Shown: positions 19,263 through 56,523 of the stretch, in pieces
How the letters are laid out: each line of letters starts with the position of its first letter
Position numbering within the stretch: the stretch's first letter is position 1
Assembly (NCBI GenBank): GCA_963833555.1
Contig: CAWHYB010000002.1
Coordinates: 209,666 to 273,665 of the forward strand
Length of the DNA: 64,000 nt
Direction of reading: 5' to 3'
Origin: an uncultured Actinomycetes bacterium
GTDB taxonomy: Bacteria; Actinomycetota; Thermoleophilia; UBA2241
Program-made: the position numbers and the translations under genes
Notes under the pieces: generated by a model
Seen by the model: the letters and a program-made list of their open reading frames with translations, nothing else
The model's database searches: none
What the model was told of the DNA's origin: nothing

Positions 19263-19269
19263 GATGGTC

Positions 19270-24181: not shown

Positions 24182-24193
24182 GTCCGAACCCTC

Positions 24194-36987: not shown

Positions 36988-37104
36988 GATGGCTCCTTCG
37001 TTGCTGGAGATTGACTCGATTGTATGCGCTTCACACGCCGTGCGGCGCCGAGGCGATGAGCGCTTGGGCCGAACGTCGCCGGACCGTGACGACCGCGCGG
37101 CGGG

Positions 37105-38139: not shown

Positions 38140-39084
38140 AACAGCGCCATCTCGGCCGATTGCTGCTCGGGCGCACCGAACACGACCACGAGGATGCCGG
38201 CGACGACGATGAGCGCGCCTCCGGCGAGCGTCGTCGCCGCCGTCGCCCTCGCCCAGCAGCAGCAGCGCATAGAGCGGCGCGCTGAGCGGCTCGAGGTAGC
38301 CCAGGATCGAGGCGTGCTCGACGCGGATGCGGCGGATGCCCTCGACGAAGATGACGTAGGGGACGGCGGTGCAGACCAGCGCCAGTACGAGCACCACGCC
38401 GAGATCGTGGGTGGTCAGCCGGAAGCCGGTGGCGGCCATCTGCCAGGCCGCCAGCGGCAGCAGGAAGACGACGTCGAGCACCATCTCGCTGAGGGCGATC
38501 GTGACGCTGCGGGTGGTGCGCGTCAGCGCCTTGGTCATGAGCGCGTAGCCGGCGTAGGTGAGACCGGTGGCCACGCCGCAGAGCGACGCCGAGGGTCGAG
38601 AGACGGTGCGCGCCGACGAGGCCGGGCAGCAGGATCACCGCCATGCCGGCGAGCGCCAGACCAAGGGCGGGATAGACGACCCGGTCCGGGCGCTGCCCGA
38701 GCAGGCGCGGCGCCAGCAGGGCCACGTAGACGGGCCCGGTGAACAGCAGGAACATGGCGATGGCGACGTCGGTCAGACGCAGGGCGATGAAGAAGAACAG
38801 CAGCGTCGTGGCGCTGAACGTGCCCATGATGAGCAAGCGGATCGACCACACGCCGGTCGCGCAGCTCGGCGAGCATCGCGCGGCCGCGCGAAGACGACGG
38901 CCACGACCGACGCGGCGATCGCCATGCGGGCCACGATGAGGGCGCTCTCGGGCATCGTCGTCATGCGCACCAGCACGCCGATCGAGCCCCAGACGAGGAA
39001 GCTCGCCGTGGCGAGGCCGTAGCCGAGGCGGTCGCGTCGCGGCGGCGCGACGGCGGCGCCTGCGGCGCCGTTCGCCGCCGCCAT
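38136..39084 (-). pseudogene. EamA/DMT family transporter, paralog c; several frameshifts
   Basis: MAAANGAAG...LATASFLVWGSIGVLVRMT, IRLLIMGTFSATTLLFFFIALRLTDVAIAMFLLFTGPVYVALLAPRLL, GLTYAGYALMTKAL and RVEHASILGYLEPLSAPLYALLLLGEG. My retranslated tail is TLAGGALIVVAGILVVVFGAPEQQSAEMALL, stop at 38136. Confidence 0.55.
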
Positions 39085-40031
39085 CAGGCGTCCGCCCTGT
39101 CGGGCAGCGCGCCGTCGGCCAGCGCCAGCGACGGCAGTTCGGGCTCGGCATCGGCGCTGCCGTAGCGCACCACGATCACGCCGGCGCCGATGATCAAGCG
39201 CGCCGCCGGCGATCGTCCACCACGACGGCACCTGGCGCAGGAACAGCAGCGCGTAGACGCGGCGCCGTCACCGGCTCGAGGTAGCCCATGATGGCGGAGT
39301 GCTGCACCTTGATGAAGTGCATGCCGTCCATGATCAGGCTGAAGGTCAAGGCTGTGCAGACGACGCCAAGGACCGCCGCGACGATGATGTTGCGGGGGGT
39401 GAAGTCGGAGGCCGACGACTGCGTCAGGCCGAGCGGCACGAGCAGCACCACGGCCATGGCGCACATGGCGAAGACGATGGTGGTGGCGTGCACCCCGCGG
39501 TGACGCAGCTGCTTGCCGCCGATGAGGTAGACCGAGTACATCGCGCCCGCGATCACGGCGAAGAACAGGCCGTAGGCGGTCAGCTGGAGGCCGTTGCCGG
39601 TGAGTCCGGGCACCAGGATCAGCGCCATGCCGCCGAGGCCGACCGCCAGGGCGACGTACACTGCCTTCTCCGTCCGGCCGCCTTCAAGGTAGGGCGCCAC
39701 GAACGCCACATACACGGGCGCAAGGTACGAGAGGAAGATGGCGATCGCCACACCGGTCTGGCGGATGGCGATGAAGTAGCTCAGCAGGTTGAGCGCCAGC
39801 GCGACGCCGCAGACCAGCAGGCGGATCGTGGTCCCCCGGTCGGCCACGAGCGCCTGCCAGTCGCGGCGCGCAGCCACGACGATACCCAGCGCCAGACCCG
39901 GCGAAGCACATGCGCAGTGCGACGAGCATGCTGGCCGACATCGTCGCGTAGGTGACCAGCGTGCCGATCGCGCCGTCGATGAGCCCGGCGGCGAGTGTCT
40001 CGGCGTAGCCGCGGGCGCGGCGCGCGTTCAC
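39084..40031 (-). pseudogene. EamA/DMT family transporter, paralog b; frameshifts near 39890 and 39190-39240
   Basis: The central 227 aa are intact in ORF 39194..39877 (IAIRQTGVAIAIFLSYLAPVYVAFVAP...VQHSAIMGYLEPVTAP). The N- and C-terminal parts are in other frames. The GTG start overlaps the stop of paralog a, and the stop overlaps the ATG of paralog c. Confidence 0.6.
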
Positions 40032-40951
40032 GCCGGCACCGTCTCTTCGGCTCTGCCCAGGGCGATCGCCACGGCGCCGGCGCCGATGATGAGCGCGCCG
40101 CCGAGCCAGGTCGACTGCGCTGGGTGCTCGCCGACCAGCAGCAGCGCCCACAGTGGCGCGGTCACCGGCTCGAGGTAGCCCAGCATGCCGGCGTGTTCGA
40201 TGCGCACGAAGCGGATGCCGTCGGTGAACAGACTGAAGCAGAGCGCCGTGTAGACGAGGCCCATCACCAGCACGATGCCGGCGTCGGGCCAGGTCGGCCG
40301 GTAGTCGCCCTGGACGGTCTGCCAGACCGCCAGCGGCGTCAGCAGGACCGTCGTGGCGGCGCAGTGGAACAGGGTGAAGGTCGTGCCGCTGATGTCGCGT
40401 CCGACGCTCTTGGTGAGCAGCAGCGCCGTCGCGTACAGCGCGCCGGCCACGACGCCGCAGGCGATGCCGGGGCCGAGGTGCTCGCCCCGCGCGGTCAGCC
40501 CAGGCACGATGATGAGCGCCATGCCGACGGCCGCGACGGCCACGGCGACCATGTCGATGCCCTGGCGGCGGGTGTGCAACACCCACGGAGCGACGAGGGC
40601 GATGTAGACCGGCGCCATGTACTCGAGGGCGATGCCGACGGCGACGTTGGCCAGCCGGATCGAGGCGAAGTAGAAGAGCAGCTCGAAGGCCACGACCACG
40701 CCGATGAGCACGAGCCGGCCGAAGCGGCCCGAGCGGCGTACCTCGTCGATGCCGCCGGTGAGCAGGAAGAGCACGCCCAGGACGACCCCTGCCAGAGCCA
40801 TGCGGCAGACCAGCAGCAGGCTGGCCGGCATGCTCGAAAGCTGCAGCAGCGCGCCCGAGGTGCCCAGGATCAGCGAGGCGACGCCGATCTCGGTGTAGCC
40901 GCGCAGGCGGCCCGAACCGAGCCTGAGCGCCGTCGCCTCGCTTGCCGACAC
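40028..40951 (-). CDS. EamA/DMT family transporter, paralog a (intact)
   Basis: 308 aa from the GTG at 40951, with GAGGGG 7 nt upstream. Ten hydrophobic segments. FYFASIRLANVAVGIALEYMAPVYIALVAP and RIEHAGMLGYLEPVTAPLWALLLVGE. Confidence 0.75.
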   Translation of the reverse strand: MSASEATALRLGSGRLRGYTEIGVASLILGTSGALLQLSSMPASLLLVCRMALAGVVLGVLFLLTGGIDEVRRSGRFGRLVLIGVVVAFELLFYFASIRLANVAVGIALEYMAPVYIALVAPWVLHTRRQGIDMVAVAVAAVGMALIIVPGLTARGEHLGPGIACGVVAGALYATALLLTKSVGRDISGTTFTLFHCAATTVLLTPLAVWQTVQGDYRPTWPDAGIVLVMGLVYTALCFSLFTDGIRFVRIEHAGMLGYLEPVTAPLWALLLVGEHPAQSTWLGGALIIGAGAVAIALGRAEETVPA

Positions 40952-40976: not shown

Positions 40977-42800
40977 TCAGGCGAAGCCGAGTTCGGCCGT
41001 GAACACCTCGTTGAAACCGCGGTCGGTCGCCAGATCGAGGAACGACAGGCGGCCGGCGAGCGCGGCCATGGCCCGGCGCTCATCGACGTCGATGAGCGCC
41101 ATCTGGGCGCCGACGCCGGCCGCGTTGCCGACGAAGGCCACGAGCTCAGGGACGACCGGCGGCAGCAACCCGATCGCCAAAGCGTGGCCGGTGTCGAGCT
41201 CGTTGCCGAAGGCGCCGGCCACGAAGACCTGGGCCAGGTCGGCCGGCTCGAGACCGGCGGCGGCCAGCAAGAGCTTCCAGCCGCTGGCGACCGCCGCCTT
41301 GGCGAGCTGCAGCGCCCGCACGTCGTGCTGGGTGAAGACGATGTCGCCCTGCGGGCCTTCGGTGAGCAGGTACTCGAGTCCGTTGCCGTTGGCCGACGCG
41401 CTCTGACGGACCCGCGGATGCGACCGCAGGCGGCCGCCGGCGTCGACGACGCCGGCGGCCACAAGGCCCGCCAGCAGGTCGACCACGCCCGAACCGCAGA
41501 TGCCCAGGGGCTCGCGCCCGCCGATGGTCTTTATGCCGTCAGGTTCGCCGTCGGCGCCGATGGTGACGCGCTCGATCGCGCCCTCGACGGCCTTCATGCC
41601 ATGGGTGATCTGATAGCCCTCGAAGGCGGGACCCGACGCGCAGCTCGTCACCACGACGCGGCCCTCGTGAGCCAGGGCGATCTCGGTGTTGGTGCCGATG
41701 TCGATGGCCATGACGGGTGCGCTCGCCTGGCTCAGCCGGGTGGCGACGATCACGGCCAGACAGTCGGAGCCGACGAAGCCCGCGATCGGAGGCGGCACGT
41801 GCACGCCGCCTTCGGGGTTCGTCTCGAGGCCGAGATCGGCGGCGCGCAACGTCACCGGCGCCGCCAGCGCCGGTGCGAACGGCGCGCCGCCGAGCCCCAC
41901 GGGCGAGAGGCCGAGCGCCAGATGGTGCATCGCGGTGTTGCCCACGATCGTCATGTCGTAGATGTGGCGGGCCGTGACCTCCTGGCGAGCGCAGAGCCGC
42001 TCAAGCAGCTCGTTGATGCCGCCTCGCGCCGCTTCGCGCAGGTCCTCGAGCCGGTCGTGGTAGATCGCCTGGGTCAGACGGGTGATGACGTCCTCGCCGA
42101 AGCGCATCTGCGGGTTCTCGATGGCCTCCTGGTCGATCTGGCGGCCGCTCTGCAGATCGAACAGATAGGCGATGATCTTGGAGGTGCCGATGTCGACCGC
42201 GACGCCGAGCAGCGGGCCGCCGGCCGCATCGTCGTCGGCGCCGCCGTCCGCCATGGCCGGCAAGCCCTCGACGTCGATGATCCGTCCCTGATAGCGGGTG
42301 ACGGCCGCGCGCCAGCCGGCGTCGCGCAGCGTGTCCGGCAGCTGCCGCAGCACGCTCAGCGGCAGGTCGTCGGCGCCGAGCGCTTCGAGCAGTCGCTCGC
42401 GGTCGGCGCGCGCGTCGCCGAGGGTCGGCGGCGCCAGGCTCACGACCTCGCGCGTCACCGCGGGTCGGGGTTCGCCGGGATGCAGGCGCGAGGTCGTCAG
42501 GATCTGGCGCCGCCCCTGCGTGGCGCGTACCTCGATGCTGACGCGCTCGGACAGGGGTACCGTCTGACAGGCGAGCCGCCAGCCTTGAGCCAGGCGGCTC
42601 GCCGGCACCTTCTGCAGCTCGGCCTCGGTCGGCTCGCTGAACTCGCCCGAACCCGTGCGCAGCAGGCACTTGCCGCAGGTGCCGCGTCCGGCGCAGTCGA
42701 CGGGCACGTCGACCGCACCGCTCGTGACGACGGCAAGCAGGGTCTCGCCGGCGGGGATCTCGACCGTGACGCCGATGGGTTCGACGAATACCTTGGTCAT
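40977..42800 (-). CDS. RamA/RACo-type corrinoid reductive activase (N-terminal [2Fe-2S] ferredoxin + ASKHA/DUF4445 ATPase)
   Basis: Uninterrupted 607 aa. Plant-type ferredoxin motif DCAGRGTCGKCLLR...RLACQT. The ASKHA part has LLGVAVDIGTSKIIAYLF, MAIDIGTNTEIAL, SCASGPAFEG and ICGSGVVD. Confidence 0.75.
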   Translation of the reverse strand: MTKVFVEPIGVTVEIPAGETLLAVVTSGAVDVPVDCAGRGTCGKCLLRTGSGEFSEPTEAELQKVPASRLAQGWRLACQTVPLSERVSIEVRATQGRRQILTTSRLHPGEPRPAVTREVVSLAPPTLGDARADRERLLEALGADDLPLSVLRQLPDTLRDAGWRAAVTRYQGRIIDVEGLPAMADGGADDDAAGGPLLGVAVDIGTSKIIAYLFDLQSGRQIDQEAIENPQMRFGEDVITRLTQAIYHDRLEDLREAARGGINELLERLCARQEVTARHIYDMTIVGNTAMHHLALGLSPVGLGGAPFAPALAAPVTLRAADLGLETNPEGGVHVPPPIAGFVGSDCLAVIVATRLSQASAPVMAIDIGTNTEIALAHEGRVVVTSCASGPAFEGYQITHGMKAVEGAIERVTIGADGEPDGIKTIGGREPLGICGSGVVDLLAGLVAAGVVDAGGRLRSHPRVRQSASANGNGLEYLLTEGPQGDIVFTQHDVRALQLAKAAVASGWKLLLAAAGLEPADLAQVFVAGAFGNELDTGHALAIGLLPPVVPELVAFVGNAAGVGAQMALIDVDERRAMAALAGRLSFLDLATDRGFNEVFTAELGFA

Positions 42801-42930: not shown

Positions 42931-44236
42931 CTAGACGTCGGCCGGCCCGTGGATGTCTGCCATCAGGTTCTTGCGATCGCGCACCTTCTGCCAGCGCGCC
43001 GCCCAGACGTCGTCGAGCACGGGTCCGGGGGTGTCGAACAGACCGCTCACGCCGGTGCGGTCCCGCCCGGCCTCGCAGTCCTCGCAGTGGCACTCGAACT
43101 TGTAGTCGTCGGGCTCGACGTACTTGCTGATGACGCCCTCGTAATTGCGCAGGATGACCTGGTGGTCGGCCATCGAGATCATGTACTGCGGGATCACCGG
43201 CGTCTTCCCGCCGCCGCCGATGGCGTCGATGATGTACATCGGCACCGCGAAGCCGGTGGTGTGGCCGCGCAGGCTCTCGTAGATCTCGAGGCCCTTGGAG
43301 ACCGAAGTGCGGAAGTGGCCGGTGCCCATCGGCCAGGTCGCACTGGTAGAAGTAGTAGGGCTTGACGCGGATCTTCACGAGACCGCGCACGAGCTTCATC
43401 ATGACCTTCGCGCAGTCGTTCACGCCGCGCATGAGCACCGTCTGGTTGCCGAGCGAGATGCCGGCGTCGGCGAGCATGGCGCAGGCCCGCGCCGAGTCCT
43501 CGGTGATCTCCTTGGGATGGTTGAAGTGCGTGTTGAGGAACAGCGGGTGGTATTTCTTGAGCATGGCGCAGAGCTCAGGCGTGATGCGCTGTGGGCAGAC
43601 CACCGGCATGCGGGTACCGAGGCGCACGATCTCGACGTGGTCGATCTCGGTGACGCGCTGCAGCAGCCACTCGAGCTTCTCGTCGGACAGGGTCAGCGGG
43701 TCGCCACCGCTGATCAGCACGTCGCGGACCTCGGGATTGCGCTTGATGTAGGTGAAGGCGTTCTCGTAGTCCTCGTCTCTCGCGGCGCCCTCGCTCTCGC
43801 CCACGATGCGGCGGCGGGTGCAGTGGCGGCAGTACATCGAGCACATCTCGGTCGCCAGGAACAGCACGCGGTCGGGATAGCGGTGCGTGATCAGCGTGGT
43901 CGGCGAGTCGATCGTCTCGGCGATCGCGTCTTCCATGTCGGCCTCGCCGACGATGAGCTCCATCGGCGAGGGCACGCCCTGCACGCGCACGGGGCAGGTC
44001 GGGTCGTCGGGGTCCATGAGCGAGGCGTAGTAGGGCGTCACCGCGACGCGGAACTTGCCCATGCAGGCCTCGAGGTCGGCACGCTGGGGGTCGGTCAGGT
44101 TGAGCACCGCGTCGAAGTCGGCGACCGTCGACAGCCGGTTGCGGACCTGCCAGCGCCAGTCGTTCCACTGCTCGTCGGTGACGCCCTTGAAGAGCGGTAT
44201 GTCTTTCCAGTGTCGTTGTGTGGTCTCGACCGTCAT
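42931..44236 (-). pseudogene. kamA: Lysine 2,3-aminomutase (KamA family radical SAM/PLP enzyme); single frameshift near 43330
   Basis: MTVETTQRHWKDIPLF..WNDWRWQVRNR, VAVTPYYASLMDPDDPTCPVR, ATEMCSMYCRHCTRRR (CxxxCxxC), VLISGGDPL, GNQTVLMRGVND and YYFYQCDLA are in frame 42797..44497. [34 protein letters not shown] continues in frame 42931..43329. GAAGGAG precedes the ATG at 44236. Confidence 0.8.
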
Positions 44237-44363: not shown

Positions 44364-45743
44364 TCAAAGCCCTGCAGTCGCGATGATACGCCGAAGTGTC
44401 TCGAGCTTCTCGGGGTCCGGCGGCGGCACGTCGTGGCCGGCGACAAGCTCGCCGGCCAGCGCCGCCGCCCTGTCGCGGGCGCTCTTGCGGCCCTCACGGT
44501 CCCACGCCTCGTAGGCGCCGCGGTCGAAGAGCCGCGGCCGCCAGACGTCCTTCATGTGTCGCCGCGTGTGCCGCTGGCCCAGCGCGTTCCCGCCGATGCC
44601 CACCGCGGCGATCGTGTCGAGCGCGATCGTCTCGTCGTCGACCACGATCCCGGCGCCCACGAAGGCCACGTTCGACCACGTCTCGGCGTCGAGCACGAGC
44701 TGCTCGGGCGAGTAGCGTGTGCCGTGGTCGGTGTGGCCGGCGCCGGCCACGAGCGCGGCGCCGCCCAGTGCGGCGGCGAGCGCGGCGAAGACGCCGGCCT
44801 CGGCGGCGCGCCAGTCGTCGGCGGCGGGACGGTCGGCGGGAAGCCCGTCGACACGGGCAGGCCGGCATGCGCCGCGAGCTGGGCCAGCGCCGCGAAGGCG
44901 CCCGGCCAGGCGGCTCCGCCGCCCCAGCCGGGCGCATGGAGCGCGACGGCCGCGGGCAGCGCCGGGACGAAGTAGGACGAGCCCGGCGCGGCGAGCTGCT
45001 GCAGCGTGCAGGCCGCCAGGGCGGCGGCGTGGAAGGCGACGATCGCGGCGTCGGCGTCGCCCGAGAGGGCGCCACTGTAGGCCACGGGCTGCGTCAGCCA
45101 GCCGCACGCCAGCCCGGCGCGCGCGCAGGCGAGCAGCGGGCCGAGATCGGTCTGGTCGGCGCTGTGCACGACCACTCCGACCGAGGGCGGGCCGTCGTCG
45201 GGCGCGGCGAGCGCCCCGACGACCGCGATCAGCGCCTCGGCCTGCACGGCCGACAGAGCCCCGCAGACGAGGATCGGCTTGTTCGTGGCGGCCACGACCT
45301 CGGCCAGGCCGGCCAGGCGGGCGGTCGGGCAGGCCGACCGCGGCGACCTCGGGCAGCGCGTCGGCCAGCAGGCAGGCGGCGCCGAGGTCGGGGGCGGCGG
45401 CCATGGCGGCCAGCAGGCCGCCCGGGCCGCCGCCGACAAGGACATCGTTGCCCGGTGCGCGGCCGGACAGCACGAACGTGGCGGGCGCCTTCGCGACCGC
45501 GCCGCCCACGAGCTCGGCGGGAAGCCAGGCCCTGCCGGCGGCGCGGTCGACCCGGGCGCCCGCCTCGTCGAGAAGACGCAGCGCCAGTTCGCCGGCGATC
45601 GGCACGCCGTCGCCGGCCAGCACCGTGAGGGCCCGGTCGTGCAACCGCGCCGCATCGTGCTCGGCCAGCGGCCGGTGGCGCAGCCTCGGCCGGTCGGTCA
45701 TCTCGCCGCCAGGCGTGCCCGAAACATGCGTCGTCTCAGCCAC
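44364..45743 (-). pseudogene. MttB-superfamily (trimethylamine methyltransferase-like) protein, paralog 1, divergent; two frameshifts (about 45330 and 44855)
   Basis: The ends are in frame 44364..45743 (C-terminal part VVDDETIALDTIAAVGIGGNALGQRHTRRHMKDVWRPRLFDRGAYEAW). The middle is in frame 44552..45655 (AEVVAATNKPILVCGA...). The GTG start overlaps the stop of paralog 2. Confidence 0.65.
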
Positions 45744-47166
45744 GAGGTCTCCTTCCGGCGGCGGCGGTCACGACTTCGTCGATGGCCCGCCGCGCCTCGT
45801 CGTCCAGATGGAACGCCGGCGGCTCGCGCCGCAGCGCCTCGCTGCGCTCCCGCACCCTTTCCTTGAGGGTGGTGGCGCCCTGCGCCTGCCAGTGCTCGAA
45901 ACCGTCGCGCTCGAACAGGCCCGGCGACCAGAACTCGCGCCCGTGTTCGCGGGTGTGCAGCAAGCCGGCGAAGCTGCCGCCCGGGCCCACCGCGGAGATC
46001 TCGTTGATGGCCAGCGACCTCGAGTCGCTGCCCACCTCATGCATGAGCGCGCGCGCATACGACACGAGCTCGTGGCCGAGCACGATCGTCTCGAACGAGC
46101 TCTGCAGCCCGGTCTCGAGGTAGCCGACGTCGTGCAGCAGCGTCGCCCGCGAAAGCGCACCCAGCACCGCGGAGATGGCGGCCTCGGCGGCCCACTGCTC
46201 GTCGAGGACCTTGGCGTCGGACACTGCGGCGTAGGCGAAGCTCGGCAGGCCGTAGAAGTGGCACAGATCGCAGGCGGCGGCGTTGCCGAGATGAAGCTCG
46301 GGGGCGCCGAAGACCTCGATCGCCGACCCCATGTCCATCGTGCCGCTGCCGACGCCGAGCACGAACGGCGCTCCCGGTGCGATGAGCTGGTGCACGACGA
46401 GCGCGCTCAGGACCTCGGCGTTGCCCAGCAGCACGGTGGCCGCGACCGACGCCGGCGCGGACTCGCCCGACACGCCCGAAGGCGCGTAGACGAGCGGGAT
46501 GCCCTGGCGGGCGCAGGCGACGATCTGGCGCAGCGCCTCGCGGCTGTGACCGAGCGGCGGCGTCGAGAGCACGTAGACGGCGAAGCTGTCGGGCTCTCCG
46601 CAGACCGCCGCCATCTCACGCAGACGCGGCAGCGAGGCGGCGTCGCGGGCGGTCGCGATGAGCGGCTTGCGTGTGCCGGCCAGCATGGCGGCGAACCGGG
46701 CGATGTCGTCTGCCTCGGCGGGCACGTCGGCCGGCCGGCCCATCGACATGACGAAGTCGATGCCGCGCAGCCGCTCGCAGAGCGCGGCCATGCCCTCGAT
46801 GTCGGCCGTCGTCGCGGGACGCCGCTCCCCGGTCTCAGGGTCTCGAACGAAACGGCAGTCGGCGCCGGTGCCGAAAAAGCTGTTGCCGTCGGCGAGCTCG
46901 ATGCCCTCGGGCGCTCCGCTGCCGTTGCCCGTCTCGCCTCGCGACTTGACCACGAAGCGTCGCGGGGCCGACGCGAGGGCCGCTCCGACCAGCGATGAGG
47001 GGATGCGGGCGCGCGTGTCTTCGACACGCGCGCCCGCATCCCCCAGCAGCCTGCGCACCGGCTCCCACGGCATGTCGACGCCGGTCTCTTCGAGCAGCGC
47101 CAGCGTCGCTTCGTGGACCTGCCAGCAGGCCTCGTCGTCCCACACGACCAGGCGGGCGCCCTTCAT
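45736..47166 (-). CDS. MttB-superfamily methyltransferase, paralog 2 (intact, no in-frame UAG)
   Basis: Uninterrupted 476 aa with GNSFFGTGADCRFVRDPETGERRPAT...LLGNAEVLSALVVHQLIAPGAPFVLG...LLHDVGYLETGL...GPGGSFAGLLHTREH. Confidence 0.75.
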   Translation of the reverse strand: MKGARLVVWDDEACWQVHEATLALLEETGVDMPWEPVRRLLGDAGARVEDTRARIPSSLVGAALASAPRRFVVKSRGETGNGSGAPEGIELADGNSFFGTGADCRFVRDPETGERRPATTADIEGMAALCERLRGIDFVMSMGRPADVPAEADDIARFAAMLAGTRKPLIATARDAASLPRLREMAAVCGEPDSFAVYVLSTPPLGHSREALRQIVACARQGIPLVYAPSGVSGESAPASVAATVLLGNAEVLSALVVHQLIAPGAPFVLGVGSGTMDMGSAIEVFGAPELHLGNAAACDLCHFYGLPSFAYAAVSDAKVLDEQWAAEAAISAVLGALSRATLLHDVGYLETGLQSSFETIVLGHELVSYARALMHEVGSDSRSLAINEISAVGPGGSFAGLLHTREHGREFWSPGLFERDGFEHWQAQGATTLKERVRERSEALRREPPAFHLDDEARRAIDEVVTAAAGRRPRG

Positions 47167-47197
47167 CGGCCCCGCCGGCGCTGTCGGCGTTCGGTCG

Positions 47198-48670
47198 TCA
47201 TGCCTTGACGAGCTCCCCGTCGGCCCGGGCGACGATGCCCGCGATCTCGGCGACGACGTCGTCGGGCAGGGGTTCGGGCCTGTAGTTGGCGAGGATGTCG
47301 TCGGCGATCTCGGTGGCCTTCTCGAGCGCGCCCTTCTTGCCGCCGGCGTTCCACACGTCGTAGGGCGTGCGGTCCCAGACCGTCGGGCGCCAGATCTCTT
47401 TCATGTGACGCCGCGTGTGCTTTTCGGCGAGGTAGGTGCCGCCGGGGCCGACCTTCTTGATGAGGTCGAGCGCGAGCGTCTCGTCGTCGACGTCGACGCC
47501 ACCGGCCACCTTCTGCACGATGCCGTAGATCTCGGTCTCCATGACCATGTGCGGGTAGTGGAGGATCTTCGAGCCGTTGAGCAGACCGGCGCCGTTCATC
47601 ATGTCGGCGCAGGTCATCACGCTCGCGAAGGTCGACAGCGAATCGTCGACGGCCGCTTGCCAGTCGGGCTCCTTGGCGCTCGTCGCCATCGTGCCCATCG
47701 CCATCGGCACGCCGTAGAAGTGAGCGAGCTGGGTGGCGCCGGCGGCCAGCAGGTAGTCCTCGGGGCCGGCGGTATAGCCGCCTGTCTTGAGGTCCATGGC
47801 GCTCGGCGCGCCGGCGAAGAACGCCGGGCAGCCGGGATAGGCCAGCTCGAGGAGCACGACACCGCTGAGCGCCTCGGCGTTCTGGACGACCAGGTTGCCG
47901 GCCAGCGTCGCGGGACCGGTACCGGCGGCCAGCGGCATGGGCATGAAGCCCGACGCCAGGCCGTGCTCGGCGGCGACCAGGTTGGCTTCGAGGTTGGGGC
48001 CGTCGTGAGCGAGCGGGTCGACCGCGCACTGCATGAAGCTGATGATCGGGCGGCGGCGCAGCTCGGCGGTGCCACCGACGATCGCGGCGGCCATCTCGAC
48101 GAGCAGCCTGGCGGCGTACTCGCCGACCGTCGTCACCGCCTGATAATGCTTGCCGGTGTTGGTGAGCACCGCCTCGGAGTCGTGCAGCGCCTTGGTCGCC
48201 GGCGGCACGTCCTGCGAGGTGACGACCGGGCCCCAGTAGTAGCTGATATTGGGCAGCGCATCGACGAAGCGCGCAGACGTAGCGGCATCGGCCTTGGTCG
48301 AGGTGCGCTTCTCGCCGGTGTGGTGGTCATAGACGAACACGCCGCTGCCGTCGTTCGACAGGTAGCAGTGCTTGCGGTCGATGATCATGTCGCAGTCCGG
48401 GTCGCGGCCGGCGAGCAGGTACTGGTCGGGGACCTGGGCGACGGCCTCCATGACGATCTTGCGCGGCAGCTTGGCGATGTGGGTCGTGCGGTCGACCGAA
48501 CACCCGTTCTTCTCGAGGATCGTGAGCGCTTTCTCGGAGGGGAAGCGGATGCCGACGTCCTCCATGACCTCGAGGGTCGCCTCGTGGATCCGCTCGAGCT
48601 CGCTGGGGGAGAGGACATCCCAGTGGAGTCGGGGGGCGATGGGGTTGATCCGTGGAGTCATGGGCAGCAA
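47198..48670 (-). CDS. MttB-superfamily methyltransferase, paralog 3 (intact, no in-frame UAG)
   Basis: Uninterrupted 490 aa with YLSNDGSGVFVYDHHTGEKR, NTGKHYQAVTTVG, AGNLVVQNAEALSGVVLLELAYPGCPAFFAGAPSAMDLKTGGY and GPGGTYLAEKHTRRHMKEIWRPTVWDR. Confidence 0.8.
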   Translation of the reverse strand: MLPMTPRINPIAPRLHWDVLSPSELERIHEATLEVMEDVGIRFPSEKALTILEKNGCSVDRTTHIAKLPRKIVMEAVAQVPDQYLLAGRDPDCDMIIDRKHCYLSNDGSGVFVYDHHTGEKRTSTKADAATSARFVDALPNISYYWGPVVTSQDVPPATKALHDSEAVLTNTGKHYQAVTTVGEYAARLLVEMAAAIVGGTAELRRRPIISFMQCAVDPLAHDGPNLEANLVAAEHGLASGFMPMPLAAGTGPATLAGNLVVQNAEALSGVVLLELAYPGCPAFFAGAPSAMDLKTGGYTAGPEDYLLAAGATQLAHFYGVPMAMGTMATSAKEPDWQAAVDDSLSTFASVMTCADMMNGAGLLNGSKILHYPHMVMETEIYGIVQKVAGGVDVDDETLALDLIKKVGPGGTYLAEKHTRRHMKEIWRPTVWDRTPYDVWNAGGKKGALEKATEIADDILANYRPEPLPDDVVAEIAGIVARADGELVKA

Positions 48671-48831
48671 CCTCGCAGGTCAAGGGTGGGGTGGCGGTTG
48701 GTGGGCGAGCATCGACCGCGGGGGACGCGGCGGCAGGTCCGGTTAGAGCCCGGAGGTGCGGCAGATGGCGATGATGGAGGCTGCTGGCACGCCACGAGTC
48801 TACCAAATGCCTGCATCTCGGCCAACCGGGC

Positions 48832-49239
48832 TCACCCGCCGACGTCGAAGACGAACGGCTCGCTGCGGTGCTCTATGCCGCGCACGTCGATGTTGGTCCC
48901 CCGGCTCAGCATCATGCTGACCAGCCTCGCCTGGTGGTCGAGGGGCTCGAGGAACATCGCGATCAGCGTCGTCTTGCCCTCGCACCCGCGGGCGCGAAGC
49001 TCGCGCGCCGCCACGCCGCACTCGACCCACTCCCGGCACCACTCGCCGGGCTTGAGGACAAGCGGGTAGTCCAGGTGAGGGTCGAGGTACAGGCGCGCCC
49101 CGAACATGGTGAGGATGATGCATGTCCAGACACTCAGAGGGCCGTCGGTCCGGTTGACCGCCGTGATCCCCAGGACGTCGACCGTCTCGCCGCCGGACGA
49201 CTCGGTCGACAGCGCGACTCTGACGTCCAGGGCGCCCAC
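48832..49239 (-). CDS. Hypothetical 135-aa protein, no recognisable domain, tightly coupled to MttB paralog 4
   Basis: Uninterrupted ORF. Its GTG start lies 3 nt after the TAG of the upstream MttB gene. The sequence (…VWTCIILTMFGARLYLDPHLDYPLVLKPGEWCREWVECG…) matches no family I recognise. Confidence 0.45.
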   Translation of the reverse strand: MGALDVRVALSTESSGGETVDVLGITAVNRTDGPLSVWTCIILTMFGARLYLDPHLDYPLVLKPGEWCREWVECGVAARELRARGCEGKTTLIAMFLEPLDHQARLVSMMLSRGTNIDVRGIEHRSEPFVFDVGG

Positions 49240-49242
49240 GCC

Positions 49243-50694
49243 CTACGACCCTGTCTCGGCCCGCTCGATGATCGCCTGGAGCTCGGCTGCGACGTCGTCG
49301 GCGAGCGGCGCCGGCCGATGGCCGGCGAGGATGTCGGCGGCAAGCTGCTGCGCCTTCTCGAAGGCGCCGGGCTTGCCGCCCTCGAGCCACGCGTCGTAGG
49401 ACGCGCGATCCCACACGGTCGGCCTCCAGATCTCCTTCATGTGCGCCCGCGTGTGCTTCTCGGCCAGGTAGGTGCCGTTCGGCCCCACGCGCGTGATCAC
49501 GTCGAGCGCGAGCTGCTCGTCGTCGACCACGATGCCCTGGGCCAGACGCTGCACGATGCGGTAGACCTCGGTCTCCATGACCAGATGCGGGTACGACAGC
49601 ATCTTGGAGCCGTCGAGCATGCCGGCGCCGCTCATCGTGTCGGCGCCGGCGAGCACCGAAGCGGCCGTCGAGAACGCGTCGTCGACGGCCGACTGCCAGC
49701 CCGGCTCCTTGGCGCCGGTGGCCATCGTGCCCATGTTGACCGGCAGGCCGAACGAGTGGGCGAGCTGCGTCGCGGCGGCGGCCAGGACGTAGTCCTCCGG
49801 GCCGCCGCCGGTATAGCCGCCGCTGCGCAGGTCCATGACGCTGGGCGCGCCGCCGAAGATCACCGGCGCGCCGGGCGAGGCGAGCTGCAGCAGCACGAGG
49901 TCGGCGATCACGCCGGCGGCATTGACGACGAGGTTGCCGGCGTAGGTGGCCGGCGCGGTGCCGCAGGCCATCGTCAGCGAGAGGAAGCCGCAGGGCAGGC
50001 CGGCCTCGGCGAAGACGAGGCCGGCCTCGAGACTCACCGCATCGTTGCCGAGCGGGTCGACCGGGCAGGCGATGAGCGACACGATGGGACGGCGCCGCAG
50101 CTCGTCGTGGCCGCCGCATGTCGCGGCAGCCATCTCGACGAGCAGTCGCGCCGCCCGCTCCCCAACCGTCGTGACGGCCTGGTAGTGCTTGCTCGTGTTG
50201 GCGAACACGGCCCGGGCCTCGTGCAACGCGCGCGTCGCCGGCGGCGCGTCGCCGGCGGCGACGATCGGCCCCCAGTAGAACGACACCTGGGGCAGCGCGT
50301 CGGCGAACCGCGCCGACTCGGCCACGTCGGCCAGCGTCGAGGGCCGCTTCTCGCCGCTGCGGGGGTCGACGACGAACACACCGCTGGCGTCGGTGGACAG
50401 GTAGCTGTGGCGGCCGTCGAGCGGCAGATCGCACGCAGGGTCGCGTCCGCACAGGCTGAACTCGCGCGGCGCCTGTGCCAGCGCCCCCTCGACGACGTTC
50501 CGAGGCAGCCGCGCGGTCTCGTGAACGCGGTCGACCGCGCACCCGCCGGCCTCGAGTACGTCGAGCGCGCGCGCCAGCGGGAACCGCACGCCGGCCTCGG
50601 CGAGCACAGTGAACACGCCTTCACGAACGCAGTCCAGTTGGGACGGCGTCAGGACGTCCCACGAGCTACGGCGAACAATCGGATCGACCCTCAT
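49243..50694 (-). CDS. MttB-superfamily methyltransferase, paralog 4 (intact, no in-frame UAG)
   Basis: 484 aa from MRVDPIVRRSSWDVL. Close paralog of 47198..48670, sharing NTSKHYQAVTTVG, AGNLVVNAAG...GAPSVMDLRSGGY and GPNGTYLAEKHTRAHMKEIWRPTVWDR. Confidence 0.8.
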   Translation of the reverse strand: MRVDPIVRRSSWDVLTPSQLDCVREGVFTVLAEAGVRFPLARALDVLEAGGCAVDRVHETARLPRNVVEGALAQAPREFSLCGRDPACDLPLDGRHSYLSTDASGVFVVDPRSGEKRPSTLADVAESARFADALPQVSFYWGPIVAAGDAPPATRALHEARAVFANTSKHYQAVTTVGERAARLLVEMAAATCGGHDELRRRPIVSLIACPVDPLGNDAVSLEAGLVFAEAGLPCGFLSLTMACGTAPATYAGNLVVNAAGVIADLVLLQLASPGAPVIFGGAPSVMDLRSGGYTGGGPEDYVLAAAATQLAHSFGLPVNMGTMATGAKEPGWQSAVDDAFSTAASVLAGADTMSGAGMLDGSKMLSYPHLVMETEVYRIVQRLAQGIVVDDEQLALDVITRVGPNGTYLAEKHTRAHMKEIWRPTVWDRASYDAWLEGGKPGAFEKAQQLAADILAGHRPAPLADDVAAELQAIIERAETGS

Positions 50695-50785: not shown

Positions 50786-50824
50786 GGGGCGGGCGGCGGA
50801 CTCGTTGAGCCCGCCGCCCGCCCC
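50786..50824 (-). terminator. GC-rich hairpin (14-bp perfect stem) after the ABC ATPase gene
   Basis: GGGGCGGGCGGCGG-actcgttgagc-CCGCCGCCCGCCCC, located 18 nt downstream of the stop at 50842. Confidence 0.6.
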
Positions 50825-50841: not shown

Positions 50842-51832
50842 TCAAGTGTCGTCGGAGAGCCAGGTATTGGCGTCGGGCATCTGCGGCGCGGTCCCAGGCA
50901 ATGGGATCTTGTCTGAGGCCAGCGTCGTGCCGTCGCCGGCCGACATGTCGGCCTCAGGACGCTCGCCGGTCCGCACGTCGACGATCTCGACTCCGGGCGT
51001 GATGCCGAGCTCGGCCGCGTGCTGTGGTTCCTTCTCGGGCAGGATATGCCGCAGGAACTGTTGCGTGCGCGCGTCCTTCGGGTGAAAGAAGACCTCGCTG
51101 GGCGGGCCTTCTTCGATGAAGTAGCCGTCGTCCATATACACCACGCGGTCGGCGACGTCGCGGGCGAAACCCATCTCGTGGCTCACCACGATCATCGTCA
51201 TGCCGCCTTCGGCGAGCTCCTTCATGACCCGAAGCACCTCGCCGATCAGCTCGGGGTCGAGGGCGCTCGTCGGCTCGTCGAAGAGCATCAACACCGGCTC
51301 CATCGCCATGGCGCGGGCGATCGCGACACGCTGCTTCTGGCCGCCCGACAACTGGCTGGGGAAGAAGTCCATGCGGTCACCCAGGCCCACCTTGGTCGAG
51401 CAGCTCGTGGGCCTTCCTGGTGGCCTCGTCCTTCTTCTCGCCGCGCACGAGTATCGGACCCTCGATGACGTTCTCGGTGGCGTCCTTGTGGGGGAACAGG
51501 TTGAACTCCTGGAACACCATGCCGCATTTCATGCGGATGTCGTGGACCGCGTGCTTGAACCCGCCGCCGTGGCTGCCGCACGTCACGTGCACGCCGCCGA
51601 TCGAGATCTCGCCGGTGGTGGGATCCTCGAGGAAGTTGAGACAGCGCAGGAACGTGCTCTTGCCGGAGCCCGAGGGGCCGATGAGGACGATCACCTCGCC
51701 GCTGCGAACCTCGAGGTCGACGCCCTTGAGCACGTGGTTTCTGCCGAAGTACTTCTGCAGCCCCTCGACCTTGACGATGAGTTCGCGCTCGCCGAGCGGA
51801 GTCTTGGTGACATCTTCAGAGATCGTCGCCAC
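50842..51832 (-). pseudogene. Polar amino acid ABC transporter ATP-binding protein (GlnQ/ArtP-like) with a C-terminal extension; one frameshift near 51390
   Basis: Walker [13 protein letters not shown]-loop [12 protein letters not shown], signature [14 protein letters not shown], Walker [13 protein letters not shown] and H-loop VVSHEM. The N-terminal part is in frame 51377..52111 and the C-terminal part in 50842..51390. A GTG start at 51832 follows GGAGAGGAGG. Confidence 0.75.
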
Positions 51833-51834
51833 GG

Positions 51835-52587
51835 CTACCTCCTCTCCTTCTCTCTCGCCTTGTCGCGCGCCATGCGGTTCTCGAGCCTGGCCTGCCAGAA
51901 CGAGAAGAAGATGGTGAGGACCCAGTAGAACGCCGCCGCCACCAGCAGGGTCGAGAAGTTGTTCATCGGTACGACGAGCCGGCGAGCTGCGCACGTCGCA
52001 ACAGCTCCTCAACAGTGATAGTCGAGACCAGAGACGTGTCCTTGATGAGGGCGATGAAGTCGTTGCCGATGGCCGGGATGACGATCTTGAAGGCCTGCGG
52101 CAGGATGACACGGCGCTGAGTCTGCCAGCCGCTCAGGCCGATCGCCCACGCGGCTTCCTGCTGGCCCTTTGGGACCGCCTGGATGCCCGCCCGGAAGACC
52201 TCGGTCAGGTACGCGCCGTAGTTGAGCGAGAGCGCGGCGACGCCGGTCACGAAGGCGCTCGGGCTGGGGCAGCCCGTGAAGGAACGAGACCCTGTTGATG
52301 ACCTCCGGCGCGGCCAGGTAGATCACCATGATCTGCAGCAGCAGCGGGGTCCCCCGGAACAGCGAGGTGTAGAAGGTCGCGAGCCAGTAGGGGATGCGGC
52401 CCAGCGTCATGCGGGCCATGTAGCCCCAGCTCTGGTAGCGGTCCCAGGCCTGCTTGTAGCTCATCGTCTTGCTGAGCCGGCCAAGTGAGCCGAACAGGGC
52501 GAAGATGCAGGCGAACACCATCGAGAGGATAGTCAGTTCGACGGTGATGATGCCGCCCCGGGCGATGTAGGTCCACCACTGCTTCAT
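51835..52587 (-). pseudogene. Amino acid ABC transporter permease (HisM/GlnP-like); two frameshifts (about 52255 and 51965)
   Basis: MKQWWTYIARGGIITVELTI...YTSLFRGTPLLLQIMVIYL is in frame 52009..52671. LNYGAYLTEVFRAGIQAVPKGQQEAAWAIGLSGWQTQRRVILPQAFKIVIPAIGNDFIALIKDTSLVS is in frame 51963..52250. My translation of the tail is [29 protein letters not shown], with a TAG at 51835-51837. Confidence 0.7.
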
Positions 52588-53045
52588 CACCTGGACGACT
52601 GATGAGGCTGTCACCGCTGCCGGCGACGCCCGTCGAGTCGAACTGCCAGGTCTTGGTGGCCCTTGCCCCATCCTTGGTCTCCAGGGTGACCTCGAAGGAA
52701 TGCTTGCCGGGACTCACCGTCGGTGAGGTCGCCCAGTCGAGCGGGAACTGGAGCCTGGCCACGGTACTGGATCACCGGCGGCTGCCGGCGTCGATGATCT
52801 GGCCGTCGATGTTGAGCTGCACTTGGCGGGTCGACCGGCTGCGACCCCGTCCTTGTAATTGACCAGACGGAACCGCCGTTCCAGGCGTCTGCCGGTCCGG
52901 CCGCCGGGGATGGTCCCGTGCACGTGACGCGGCGGCCTCGGCCTTCCCGCCGCCAGGACGACGCCCGTCGTCAGCGCCGCAGGTCGAGGCCCCGAGAGCG
53001 CGGCCGAACAGCGTGGTACCGCGAACAGCTTACGTGGTCTGCGTC
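52587..53045 (-). pseudogene. Small hypothetical (lipo)protein, beta-sandwich-like; frameshifted, boundaries uncertain
   Basis: Protein-like text VQLNIDGQIIDAGS / ARLQFPLDWATSPTVSPGKHSFEVTLETKDGARATKTWQFDSTG occurs in different frames. GGAAAGGAAG lies upstream near 53050. A TGA overlaps the permease ATG. Confidence 0.3.
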
Positions 53046-53080
53046 GTCTTCCTTTCCTCAGAACCTCGGGTCGGGGGTCG

Positions 53081-53109
53081 GGCGGGGCGCCAGCTACGGG
53101 CGCCCCGCC
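53081..53109 (-). terminator. GC-rich hairpin (11-bp stem) after the frameshifted binding-protein gene
   Basis: GGCGGGGCGCC-agctacg-GGCGCCCCGCC. Confidence 0.45.
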
Positions 53110-54299: not shown

Positions 54300-55193
54300 T
54301 CACGGCGCATAGAGCGCCAGTCCCGCCGCCGGGGCCTTCGAGAGGTCATGACCCCCGTACCACTTGGCCGAGATCCTCGCCAGGCTGCCGTCGCCGCGCA
54401 TGCTCGCGATGGCATGATCGAACAAGGCGGACAGATCCGTCTGTCCCATCGCCGTGGCGAAGCCCAGCGGCTCGTAGAAGAAGGGACCGCCGATGGCCAG
54501 GGACTCGCCGCTCGCGATCGCGCTCCAGGCGTTCGCCTGGTCGGTCATCACGGCGCCGATCTTGCCTGCGTTCAGGTCGGCGATCGCCCCGCTGATGTCG
54601 CCGTACGACACCACGGAGACGCCGCCGATCTTCTGCAGCCAGCGTTCGAAGACACTCTGGGCGACCGCGCCCACTGTACTGCCCTGGAGCTGTGTGACAC
54701 TCGCAGGCGGGCTGGCCGCCGAAGGCACGAGCACCACGGCCTGCTGATAGGCGTAGGGCGCGCCGAAGGAGAGTGCGTTCCGCGCGCTCTTGGTGATCGG
54801 CAGCGAGTCGATCGCGACGTCGCACGTCCCATCGGCCAGCGTACGGGCGACGGTGTCCCAGGCGGGGATGACGAACTCGACCTTGAGGCCGAGGATCGCG
54901 CCCACGCGGCGGGCGACGTCGATATTGAAGCCGACGAGCTGCTTGCTCGAGGGGTCGAGCGAGCTCTGTGGCGGGAACGCCCCATCGACCGCCACGATCA
55001 GCGTCTTCTTCTGGACGACGGCGGCCGCAGTGCCCGTGGGGGCGTGGCCCAGGATAGCACGCGCAGTGGCGGCGGGGTCGGTGGCGGCGCCGCCGGCCCC
55101 GCCGCCACAGCCGCCCACGATCAGGATGGCGACCGCCGCCAGCGCCACGGCGACTGCCGCGAGGCACGCGGGCGGATGGCGTCTAGAAGCCAA
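54300..55193 (-). CDS. Amino acid ABC transporter substrate-binding lipoprotein (family 3), copy 2 (intact)
   Basis: 298 aa from a TTG at 55193. Lipobox ILIVGGCGGG. LIVAVDGAFPPQSSLDPSSKQLVGFNIDVARRVGAILGLKVEFVIPAWD is parallel to copy 1. Ends AKWYGGHDL. Confidence 0.7.
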   Translation of the reverse strand: MASRRHPPACLAAVAVALAAVAILIVGGCGGGAGGAATDPAATARAILGHAPTGTAAAVVQKKTLIVAVDGAFPPQSSLDPSSKQLVGFNIDVARRVGAILGLKVEFVIPAWDTVARTLADGTCDVAIDSLPITKSARNALSFGAPYAYQQAVVLVPSAASPPASVTQLQGSTVGAVAQSVFERWLQKIGGVSVVSYGDISGAIADLNAGKIGAVMTDQANAWSAIASGESLAIGGPFFYEPLGFATAMGQTDLSALFDHAIASMRGDGSLARISAKWYGGHDLSKAPAAGLALYAP

Positions 55194-56523
55194 CCGTCTC
55201 GCCGGCGACGAGCTGCCGCAGCTCGGCGTCGAGATCGGGGGCGAGAGGTGGAGGGATGTGCGTCGCCAGCAGCTCGCGCGCGAGGCTGCGCGCGGCCTCG
55301 CGCGCCCCGCCCGCGGCGTCGCCGGGCAAGAGACTCTGCGCCGCCGCACGAACTGCCTGGGGCGGCGTCATATCGGACGCGACGCCGGTGGCGGCGGCGG
55401 CTCTCGCCGCCGCCGCCACCTCGGTCCCGAGCATGAGTTCGTCGAACGAGAAGATCCGGCCGCCCGCGACCATGCCCACACCGGTCAGCATGTCGACGCC
55501 GGCCAGCATCGACAGCCAGGTCGTGGTGACATCGTCGACAAGGGTCTGCCAGCCCGGCAGCTTGGCGGCCGAGGCGTTCACGCCACACATCGTCGGAAGT
55601 CCATAGTAGGCGCCGATGTCGCCGACGGCCGCGCCCATGAGCGTGTCTTCGGGAGCCCCGCCGGAGAAATCGCCGGTGCGCAGGTCCATGACGCTCGGGA
55701 TGAAGCAGATGAAGACCGGCGCGCCCGGATGCGCCGCCTCGATGGCGCAGACGCCCGAGAGCGACTCGGCGATCCCCACCACCAGCGAGCCGGCCATCGT
55801 GATCGGTGTCGTCGAACCGCCCTGCGGCATGGTCACGAAGCCGATCGGCACCCCGGCGGCGGCGAACACGAGCCCCGCTTCGAGGGTGCCCTCGTCGTGA
55901 CCGAGCGGTGTGATCGTGCCGAGCAGAGCGGAGATGGGCGAGGCGCGGCGCACAGCCTGGCCGCCGCCGGCGATGGCGCGGGCCATCTCGACCGCGACCT
56001 GGGCCTGGGCCTTATCGACGATGGTCACCGTCTGGACGTGCTTGCCCGTGTTGGCGAGTACCTCGTAGATCTCGTAGAGGCCGCGCCGCTCGACCGGCCG
56101 GTCCTGCGCGCTCACGGTCGTCCAGCAGAAGTCCACGTCGTCGAGCGCATCGACGACGCGGGTGATGGCAGCCACGTCGGCGGCCGTCGTCGGCCGCTTT
56201 GCGCCGCTGTCGAGATCGTAGATGTCGGTGGGGCAACCGTCGGTGGTGAGCAGCGAGGTCTCGCCGGTCACCAGGGTGCGATTGGCGCGAGCTCCGAGCG
56301 TCATGCGAGCCGGAGCGAGCGCTACCAGATGGCGGACGACGTCAGGCGGGATGCGCACGGTGTGGCCGTCGATATGAGCACCGGCGGCGGCGAGCGCCTC
56401 GCGCGCCGCCGCCGAGGGCATCGCCACGCCGGTCGTGGCGAGCACGTGCAGCGCCGCCGCGTCGAGCCTGTCAAGGTCGCCCAGGGTGAGGATCTCTATA
56501 CGTCCAGCCAGCCTGGGGAGCAT
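55183..56523 (-). CDS. MttB-superfamily methyltransferase, paralog 5 (intact, no in-frame UAG)
   Basis: 447 aa from MLPRLAGRIEIL. NTGKHVQTVTIV, MAGSLVVGIAESLSGVCAIEAAHPGAPVFICFIPSVMDLRTGDFSGGAPE and DMLTGVGMVAGG. The stop overlaps the start of the binding-protein gene. Confidence 0.75.
   Translation of the reverse strand: MLPRLAGRIEILTLGDLDRLDAAALHVLATTGVAMPSAAAREALAAAGAHIDGHTVRIPPDVVRHLVALAPARMTLGARANRTLVTGETSLLTTDGCPTDIYDLDSGAKRPTTAADVAAITRVVDALDDVDFCWTTVSAQDRPVERRGLYEIYEVLANTGKHVQTVTIVDKAQAQVAVEMARAIAGGGQAVRRASPISALLGTITPLGHDEGTLEAGLVFAAAGVPIGFVTMPQGGSTTPITMAGSLVVGIAESLSGVCAIEAAHPGAPVFICFIPSVMDLRTGDFSGGAPEDTLMGAAVGDIGAYYGLPTMCGVNASAAKLPGWQTLVDDVTTTWLSMLAGVDMLTGVGMVAGGRIFSFDELMLGTEVAAAARAAAATGVASDMTPPQAVRAAAQSLLPGDAAGGAREAARSLARELLATHIPPPLAPDLDAELRQLVAGETVGF

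Follow-up and report, generated by a model that had tools for sequence, protein, structure and literature searches.

A putatively corrinoid-dependent gene island with five conserved non-pyrrolysine MttB-superfamily genes in an uncultured actinobacterium of the Thermoleophilia, its corrinoid partner most likely encoded in trans

A 64,000-nucleotide stretch of contig CAWHYB010000002.1, assembled from an uncultured actinobacterium and hereafter called the window, encodes five members of the MttB methyltransferase superfamily, four of them in a row, together with a reductive activase and a lysine 2,3-aminomutase. We read this locus as a corrinoid-dependent island whose protein partners are encoded in trans and whose numerous frameshifts are errors of assembly, and we assign this explanation as a whole a probability of roughly 0.68. 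The G+C content of the window is about 70%, so that long spurious open reading frames (ORFs) are common; genes were called from third-position G+C (GC3) in combination with Pfam, and a frame-corrected translation of the whole 64 kb, constructed from the GC3 phase, was scanned against Pfam. Labels such as L002 and L010 denote related loci taken from other genomes, mostly metagenome-assembled genomes (MAGs). The five genes, numbered here as paralogs 1 to 5, are the following.

44364-45701 (formal ORF 44364-45743), minus strand: paralog 1, non-pyrrolysine MttB in which two single-base indels compensate each other; its ortholog in L002 is the third MttB gene there
45736-47166, minus strand: paralog 2, non-pyrrolysine MttB of 476 aa (PF06253, E 9.3e-73)
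47198-48661, minus strand: paralog 3, non-pyrrolysine MttB of 487 aa (PF06253, E 3.2e-93), the most conserved of the five
49243-50694, minus strand: paralog 4, non-pyrrolysine MttB of 483 aa (PF06253, E 1.9e-91), ending in a TAG stop codon
55183-56523, minus strand: paralog 5, non-pyrrolysine MttB of 446 aa (PF06253, E 3.7e-61), member of a C-terminally shortened subfamily

All five proteins match the MTTB profile (PF06253) with scores of 127-313 bits, over its gathering score of 25 bits; paralog 1 does so with an E value of 4.6e-37 and in two stretches owing to its frameshifts. In a joint alignment with MttB and MtgB, the column equivalent to pyrrolysine 334 is occupied in paralogs 1 to 5 by Pro, Val, Ala, Ala and Ala, respectively, and there is no stop codon at this site in any of them. 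Scores against TIGR02369, the NCBIfam equivalog for pyrrolysine-type MttB, were 173.7, 280.1, 454.7, 415.5 and 269.8 bits in the same order, all below the cutoff of 525. Similarly, when the substrate-binding residues of MtgB listed in PMC13080624 (Y97, R312, H348 and F356) were compared, the sole match was a His at position 348 in paralog 2, and every other position differed in all five. Overall identity to MtgB, the only characterised quaternary-amine enzyme sequence in this comparison, is 24-31%. From these comparisons the five paralogs are predicted to be substrate:corrinoid (MT1-type) methyltransferases of the non-pyrrolysine MttB superfamily, and none of them is predicted to be a trimethylamine (TMA) enzyme or a glycine-betaine enzyme of the MtgB type.

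The fold was assessed for paralog 3 by alignment to Methanosarcina MttB (7XCL), for paralog 5, the most aberrant of the five, by an AlphaFold2 model and for paralogs 1, 2 and 4 by sequence. Paralog 3 aligns with 7XCL over residues 16-481 (466 aligned, E 1.7e-72, about 32% identical) and with Desulfitobacterium MtgB (9YCE/2QNE) at an E value of 7.6e-68. Paralog 5 covers positions 30-406 of the 500 in the MTTB profile; about 45 conserved residues of the C-terminal part are missing from it and from its orthologs alike, and the lost stretch, at the 3′ end of the gene (55183-55400), includes the nearly invariant family motif GPGGxxL...HTRxH. Despite this deletion the barrel appears intact in the model, which has a mean predicted local distance difference test score (pLDDT) of 84 and a predicted template-modelling score (pTM) of 0.87, and Foldseek aligned it to 9YCE, 2QNE, 7XCL and 4YYC with template-modelling (TM) scores of 0.87-0.88.

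Paralog 1 requires a separate description. GC3 phase and tblastn with the intact ortholog divide it into three frame pieces (45330-45701, 44840-45331 and 44367-44846), which are 65-71%, 56% and 71% identical to the L002 ortholog, respectively. Its middle third matches MttB proteins solely in another frame, the GC3 phase switches twice, and the two junctions are a one-base insertion (+1) and a contraction of a C run (-1). The gene is open as an ORF only by accident of its 75% G+C.

Each paralog has orthologs of its own. Those of paralog 3, which has more than 1,200 relatives in the database, are 70-91% identical in about 65 loci and 52-55% identical in MAGs of Bacillota and Desulfovibrio; those of paralog 2 reach 75-78% identity in L010, L012, L047 and L055, and 42 loci have one of at least 55%; and those of paralog 5, found at 75-80% identity in 11 loci, share its shortness (437 aa in L002). 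Because each is matched by its own orthologs, the five are old, separately conserved lineages rather than recent copies. An earlier note, made from the letters of the DNA alone, had placed five MttB-superfamily genes here, had seen no amber codon at their pyrrolysine site and had thought them divergent enough to imply different substrates, and our searches agree with it on all three points, every pair of paralogs other than 3 and 4 being 24-40% identical. The note had also called four of the five genes uninterrupted ORFs, paralog 1 being open in form only, and had described paralogs 3 and 4 as close duplicates, which at 62% identity they are not. A loss of the MttB TIM-barrel core, which it had raised as a possibility, was found neither in the alignment of paralog 3 to 7XCL nor in the model of paralog 5.

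Pfam detected no B12-binding, B12-binding_2, Pterin_bind, MtrH or URO-D domain in the frame-corrected pseudo-proteome of the 64 kb. A corrinoid protein was likewise not recovered from the window by tblastn with seeds from related loci (best E 0.58) or by a hidden Markov model (HMM) of nine corrinoid proteins applied to all six frames with filters off (best E 2.3). Rfam and ARAGORN found no pyrrolysine tRNA and no cobalamin or other riboswitch in the window, only two ordinary tRNAs. Most Thermoleophilia relatives have such a protein beside the cluster. Immediately upstream of the paralog 3 ortholog, about 37 of their loci carry an MttB gene in divergent orientation, whose in-frame stop coincides with the pyrrolysine position. 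The stop is TAG in 39 of 39 cases in this set, and the gene is followed by one for a corrinoid protein of 208-216 aa with a GDLHDIGK motif. The cluster is without this pair in the window and in the 13 MAGs of its subclade that have its gene order. Searches of the relatives' genomes, among them one with a codon-level DNA pattern, located the pair elsewhere in the genome in 11 of these 13 MAGs (palsa_645, bog_752 and MFD09286.bin.2.48 among them), and where pair and cluster share a contig they are about 150 kb (MFD01188.bin.1.141) or about 200 kb (MFD04492.bin.1.108) apart. The unlinked pairs are often accompanied by a pyrrolysine-type mtbB, a TetR gene, a permease and another non-pyrrolysine MttB. 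Because the pair is present elsewhere in most MAGs of the subclade, we consider that the missing corrinoid partner is most likely encoded in trans, as it is in Eubacterium limosum.

Several points weigh against this interpretation. The corrinoid pair is known from relatives, the window's own genome having been read over the 64 kb only, and the best 120 matches of the palsa_645 corrinoid protein, all at least 77% identical, include none that could be placed on the window's own contig. A gene for a methylcorrinoid:tetrahydrofolate methyltransferase (MT2) was recognised in none of the fetched loci of relatives. The corrinoid proteins of the relatives share operons with pyrrolysine-type mttB and mtbB, and they may serve methylamine enzymes only. 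Finally, there is no activity or substrate on record for any of the five paralog lineages.

The same absence could mean that no dedicated corrinoid protein is needed, that the paralogs methylate free cobamide or an acceptor directly, and that the RACo-type reductive activase of the cluster serves another protein or an enzyme-bound cofactor. Neither the window nor its close relatives have a corrinoid protein in the 35 kb downstream or the 7 kb upstream of the cluster, the cluster has retained RACo and not the corrinoid gene, and free cob(I)alamin is the usual acceptor in assays of MtgB (PMC13080624). However, every characterised member of the family works in vivo with its cognate corrinoid protein (PMC12155760, PMC13080624), the targets of RACo-family activases are corrinoid proteins, one such protein has stayed in the same island in sister lineages, and the subclade MAGs with a corrinoid protein elsewhere likewise speak against it, so that we regard an enzyme system without a carrier as extremely unlikely. 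For a partner in trans, the claims of the earlier note divide as follows: its failure to find a B12-binding domain or a pterin-binding methyltransferase in the 64 kb is borne out, for the former by Pfam, tblastn and the corrinoid HMM and for the latter by Pfam, and the activase that it listed is indeed present and intact. The picture that it implies, of a system lacking its partner, does not stand, the corrinoid pair being beside the cluster in sister lineages and elsewhere in most subclade MAGs; neither do the partners lie just outside the window in the same operon, as it had also considered, to judge from the relatives, where they are distant and in another operon.

Among Thermoleophilia/Actinomycetota MAGs, genuine pyrrolysine-type mttB genes were seen in L013-L077 (about 37 loci), L083, L091, L247, L272, L283, L289, L290, L307, L308, L317, L319, L344 and L347, and several actinobacterial loci carry a pyrrolysine-type mtbB with the motif RLDGL*VGxGDP, each beside a corrinoid protein. 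Read at the sequence level, these genes imply an expansion of the genetic code in this actinobacterial group, which agrees with PMC10805028; a literature search on pyrrolysine in Thermoleophilia gave nothing relevant on that pairing.

We also assessed whether the frameshifts of the island reflect decay. At least 17 frame breaks fall between 34.9 and 55.1 kb, as determined by tblastn with intact orthologs, and those neighbours of the MttB genes that encode KamA, the ABC ATPase and permease, a substrate-binding protein, EamA transporters, the aminotransferase and the BKACE enzyme are broken. Taken with the disappearance of the pyrrolysine-type mttB/corrinoid pair from the cluster in the window's subclade, this could describe a dead system that has lost its adjacent pair and in which the remaining genes (paralog 1, KamA, the transporters, the aminotransferase and Kce) are truly frameshifted. 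Against this, unrelated genes elsewhere in the window are broken equally often, as in an HdrA-like gene at 11.3-12.3 kb with three frame changes within about 100 nucleotides, and the GC3 phase switches inside continuous genes across the whole window (for example at 11281-12100, 37214-40031, 43326, 44843, 45330 and 51386-52600). Premature stops and large deletions were not found in the genes concerned, GC3 is 0.85-0.93 in every frame piece, and the pieces are 56-97% identical at the amino acid level to intact orthologs. Two of the three junctions inspected are changes in homopolymer length and resemble homopolymer miscalls, comparable fragmentation was seen by tblastn in other long-read MAG loci, and the cluster genes are all intact in the close relatives L002, L003 and L006. 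Because GC3 is high in each piece and the genes of relatives are intact, the frameshifts are most likely indel errors of long-read assembly; a decaying remnant is quite unlikely. The fit of the indel pattern to such errors means, therefore, that ORF-based annotation of the window is unreliable.

The MttB genes are embedded in a larger set of genes on the same strand, listed here with the two smaller features that separate or follow them.

34868-35697, minus strand: Kce-like beta-keto acid cleavage enzyme (Pfam BKACE), frame-broken, coordinates by tblastn
35779-37022, minus strand: GSA-aminomutase-like class III aminotransferase (Pfam Aminotran_3), frame-broken, coordinates by tblastn
37214-40945, minus strand: four tandem EamA-family transporter genes (Pfam EamA), three of them frame-broken
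40977-42800, minus strand: RACo-type ATP-dependent reductive activase, intact, with the Pfam domains Fer2, RACo_linker, Raco_middle and RACo_C_ter
42931-44236, minus strand: AblA/KamA-type lysine 2,3-aminomutase (Pfam Radical_SAM), with one G-run frameshift near 43326
48832-49236, minus strand: orf135, a small conserved ORF (GC3 0.93), immediately following the TAG stop of paralog 4 and in frame with it
50786-50824, minus strand: terminator-like hairpin with an 18-bp stem (16 G-C pairs) and a T-rich tail, between the ABC ATPase gene and paralog 4
50842-53100, minus strand: ATP-binding cassette (ABC) permease (BPD_transp_1) and ABC ATPase, assigned with Pfam, each frame-split into 2-3 pieces by tblastn against L002
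53203-55167, minus strand: two SBP_bac_3 substrate-binding protein genes of the polar/basic amino-acid type, the second frame-broken

The aminomutase is the best defined of these neighbours. Its frame junction is an insertion of one extra G (GG to GGG), and after frame correction the protein scores 561.8 bits against TIGR03820 (AblA), over the cutoff of 525.4. It aligns with the Clostridium lysine 2,3-aminomutase structure 2A5H at an E value of 1.5e-160, contains the radical-SAM motif CxxxCxxC in a stretch with CRHCTRR and conserves D293, D330 and K337; we take the two Asp residues to bind the epsilon-amine of lysine and K337 to be the lysine that carries pyridoxal phosphate. The best NCBIfam match of the activase is the AcsV-type corrinoid regeneration protein, below cutoff; its ortholog in L002 is 79% identical and in one piece, and RACo is kept downstream of KamA in about 60 loci. 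Intact BKACE orthologs score 378-383 bits on NF052387 (Kce; cutoff 382), and the aminotransferase, which resembles GSA-aminomutase, falls under every family cutoff. Among the transporters, the L002 EamA ortholog matches the carboxylate/amino acid/amine transporter family TIGR00950 below cutoff, and the L002 orthologs of the substrate-binding proteins find their best matches, also below cutoff, in cystine and Lys/Arg/Orn binding proteins. Pfam scans of the window found no KamDE (B12-dependent beta-lysine 5,6-aminomutase), Kdd or Kal. The aminotransferase and the Kce-like enzyme that follow the EamA genes may provide a B12-independent route from beta-lysine to a 3-keto acid.

Behind paralog 4, orf135 has homologs in the same position in L005 (75% identical) and L044 (49%), where they lie in a different frame. 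It gave no match in Pfam or NCBIfam scans, and it was rejected as a cryptic B12-binding protein because it also lacks a DxHxxG motif and any HMM signal. Read-through of the paralog 4 TAG, as pyrrolysine or otherwise, was likewise rejected, given the other frame of the downstream ORF in L005 and L044 and a GTG start two codons past the TAG.

The arrangement of these genes is conserved. The cluster is kept in about 75 MAGs of uncultured Thermoleophilia/Actinomycetota, and about 70 loci share the order of several MttB genes, KamA, RACo and three or four EamA genes; ahead of this core there are often genes for sortase, YbaK, paralog 5 and an ABC transporter, and behind it, often too, the aminotransferase and BKACE genes. 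MAGs with orthologs of paralog 3 come from Danish soils, Stordalen Mire (palsa_645, bog_752 and fen_672) and lake sediments, and expression of non-pyrrolysine and pyrrolysine mttB by Actinobacteriota, including the genus Bog-752, has been reported from Stordalen Mire (PMC10805028). We read the locus as a catabolic island, conserved in this group, whose host is an uncultured and probably anaerobic actinobacterium of the Thermoleophilia/Bog-752 type. Elsewhere in the window, 9450-16140 on the plus strand holds an Hdr/Flx-like cluster (CCG-domain HdrB/C, an FAD-type HdrA, MvhD/FlpD, several 4Fe-4S proteins and a FAD_binding_6/NAD_binding_1 reductase), whose predicted products point to an anaerobic, flavin-based electron-bifurcating metabolism. 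On the plus strand at 62431-64000 is dnaA (DnaA_N, Bac_DnaA, Bac_DnaA_C), which places the island a few kb from the presumed replication origin, and the L010 neighbourhood is alike. The minus strand also encodes a large CheB-CheR-SpoIIE fusion protein (685-3729) and, in succession at 16408-28260, large secreted proteins of the BNR/YCF48-like, fibronectin-III and prepilin (N_methyl) types.

The pairing of KamA with a paralog-3-type MttB extends beyond this group: it was found in three phyla, namely in the roughly 70 Thermoleophilia loci, in the Bacillota MAGs L066, L068 and L070 and in the Desulfovibrio MAG L069. In L066 (4799-10772), L068, L069 (7979-13833) and L070, the gene order is a sigma-54 activator, NhaC-type and APC transporters, a GNAT protein, KamA, a paralog-3-like MttB, a corrinoid protein and a second MttB, and the GNAT-KamA genes there are best described, from their sequences, as an AblB/AblA-like pair joined to MttB genes. 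This recurrence across three phyla, together with the linkage to an AblA-type KamA, a Kce-like enzyme and a Lys/Arg-type ABC transporter, suggests that the substrate is a methylated amine derived from lysine or beta-lysine. In a more specific form of this idea, paralog-3-type MttB and perhaps its neighbours would have as substrate N6-trimethyllysine, a beta-lysine betaine or some other methylated amine derived from lysine, and KamA would either prepare the substrate, like MthK for choline, or catalyze the first step in feeding the demethylated lysine skeleton through the B12-independent aminotransferase and Kce-like cleavage; we put this forward tentatively and think it, as worded, unlikely to be correct. 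The literature that was searched contained no published link of MttB with an aminomutase or with trimethyllysine, and no fusion of the lysine-fermentation module (KamA, Kce, class III aminotransferase) with MttB genes.

Adjacency might instead be coincidental, with the MttB paralogs and the KamA/aminotransferase/Kce/ABC module belonging to unrelated pathways and the paralogs using carnitine, proline betaine, butyrobetaine, choline phosphate or similar betaines. A shared substrate is without direct evidence, the binding-protein assignments are under their family cutoffs, and the terminator-like hairpin, likely a transcription boundary within the island to judge from its predicted structure, separates the transporter genes from paralog 4. 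On the other side of that hairpin, however, the genes from paralog 4 through EamA share a strand and either overlap or are about 170 nucleotides apart at most, and the three-phylum pairing, with its GNAT-KamA-MttB-corrinoid-MttB order in Bacillota and Desulfovibrio, is not what chance neighbours would be expected to display. Coincidental adjacency is therefore unlikely in our estimation.

Based on these results, the corrinoid-dependent reading can be set out as a sequence of putative steps. Each paralog would demethylate an amine of its own, quaternary or activated in some other way, and transfer the methyl group to a Co(I) corrinoid protein encoded elsewhere, which in the relatives might be the product of the MttC-like gene behind pyrrolysine-type mttB, or else another corrinoid protein. 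RACo would re-reduce the corrinoid protein after accidental oxidation, and tetrahydrofolate would receive the methyl group through an unlinked MT2. The module of aminomutase, aminotransferase and Kce would process a lysine-like carbon skeleton or prepare the substrate.

This scheme has counterparts in known systems. In E. limosum, MtpB, MtcB and MtyB share the corrinoid protein MtqC, the MT2 MtqA and the activase RamQ, and the mth cluster (MthB/MthC/MthA/MthK) holds an EamA transporter and a kinase, MthK, that modifies choline ahead of demethylation (PMC12155760). As in that organism, many divergent non-pyrrolysine MttB paralogs occur in one genome, MT1 genes need not adjoin those for their corrinoid protein and MT2, an ATP-dependent reductive activase is present, the cluster contains an EamA transporter, and an accessory enzyme may modify the substrate first. 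In contrast, E. limosum is a Firmicute acetogen and the host here an actinobacterium, the place of the kinase as accessory enzyme is taken by a lysine 2,3-aminomutase, a class III aminotransferase and a Kce-like enzyme, and an MT2 is not among the genes read. With MtgB/MtgC/MtgA of Desulfitobacterium hafniense the island shares the non-pyrrolysine TIM barrel of the MttB family and a corrinoid-dependent logic with an activase; it differs in that the corrinoid protein and MT2 are not adjacent and the Y97, R312, H348 and F356 set is not kept. Methanosarcina barkeri MttB/MttC (7XCL/7XCN) belongs to the same fold and family, and relatives of the window's organism carry genuine pyrrolysine-type mttB-mttC pairs, whereas in the five paralogs Pro, Val or Ala replaces pyrrolysine and scores stay below the equivalog cutoff. 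Finally, the module resembles lysine fermentation (KamA/AblA, Kce, class III aminotransferase) in a KamA above the AblA cutoff with the lysine-binding Asp residues and a BKACE ortholog at the Kce cutoff, and departs from it in that KamDE, Kdd and Kal are not in the window and the aminotransferase is below every cutoff. We regard the locus as an ordinary member of a known corrinoid methyltransferase system, one not previously characterised.

Non-pyrrolysine MttB enzymes decide whether the quaternary amines of anoxic soils, sediments and guts are turned into TMA or methane precursors or are demethylated without release of TMA. The substrates assigned to this family are only a handful, and many more homologs, the roughly 1,200 found here among them, have none assigned. 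The cluster comes from a peat and wet-soil actinobacterial lineage that has been flagged as an active methylotroph (PMC10805028), and it offers five conserved specificities in a gene context (lysine 2,3-aminomutase, Kce-like enzyme and Lys/Arg-type importer) from which a concrete hypothesis on the substrate can be put to the test. If that hypothesis of a lysine-derived substrate is true, the MttB superfamily would gain a new class of substrates, and methylotrophy would be tied to lysine fermentation in Actinomycetota, Bacillota and Desulfovibrio alike. In scans of genomes, a corrinoid partner that seems "missing" is nothing unusual for the MttB family, since its members can share a carrier and a second methyltransferase whose genes lie at a great distance.

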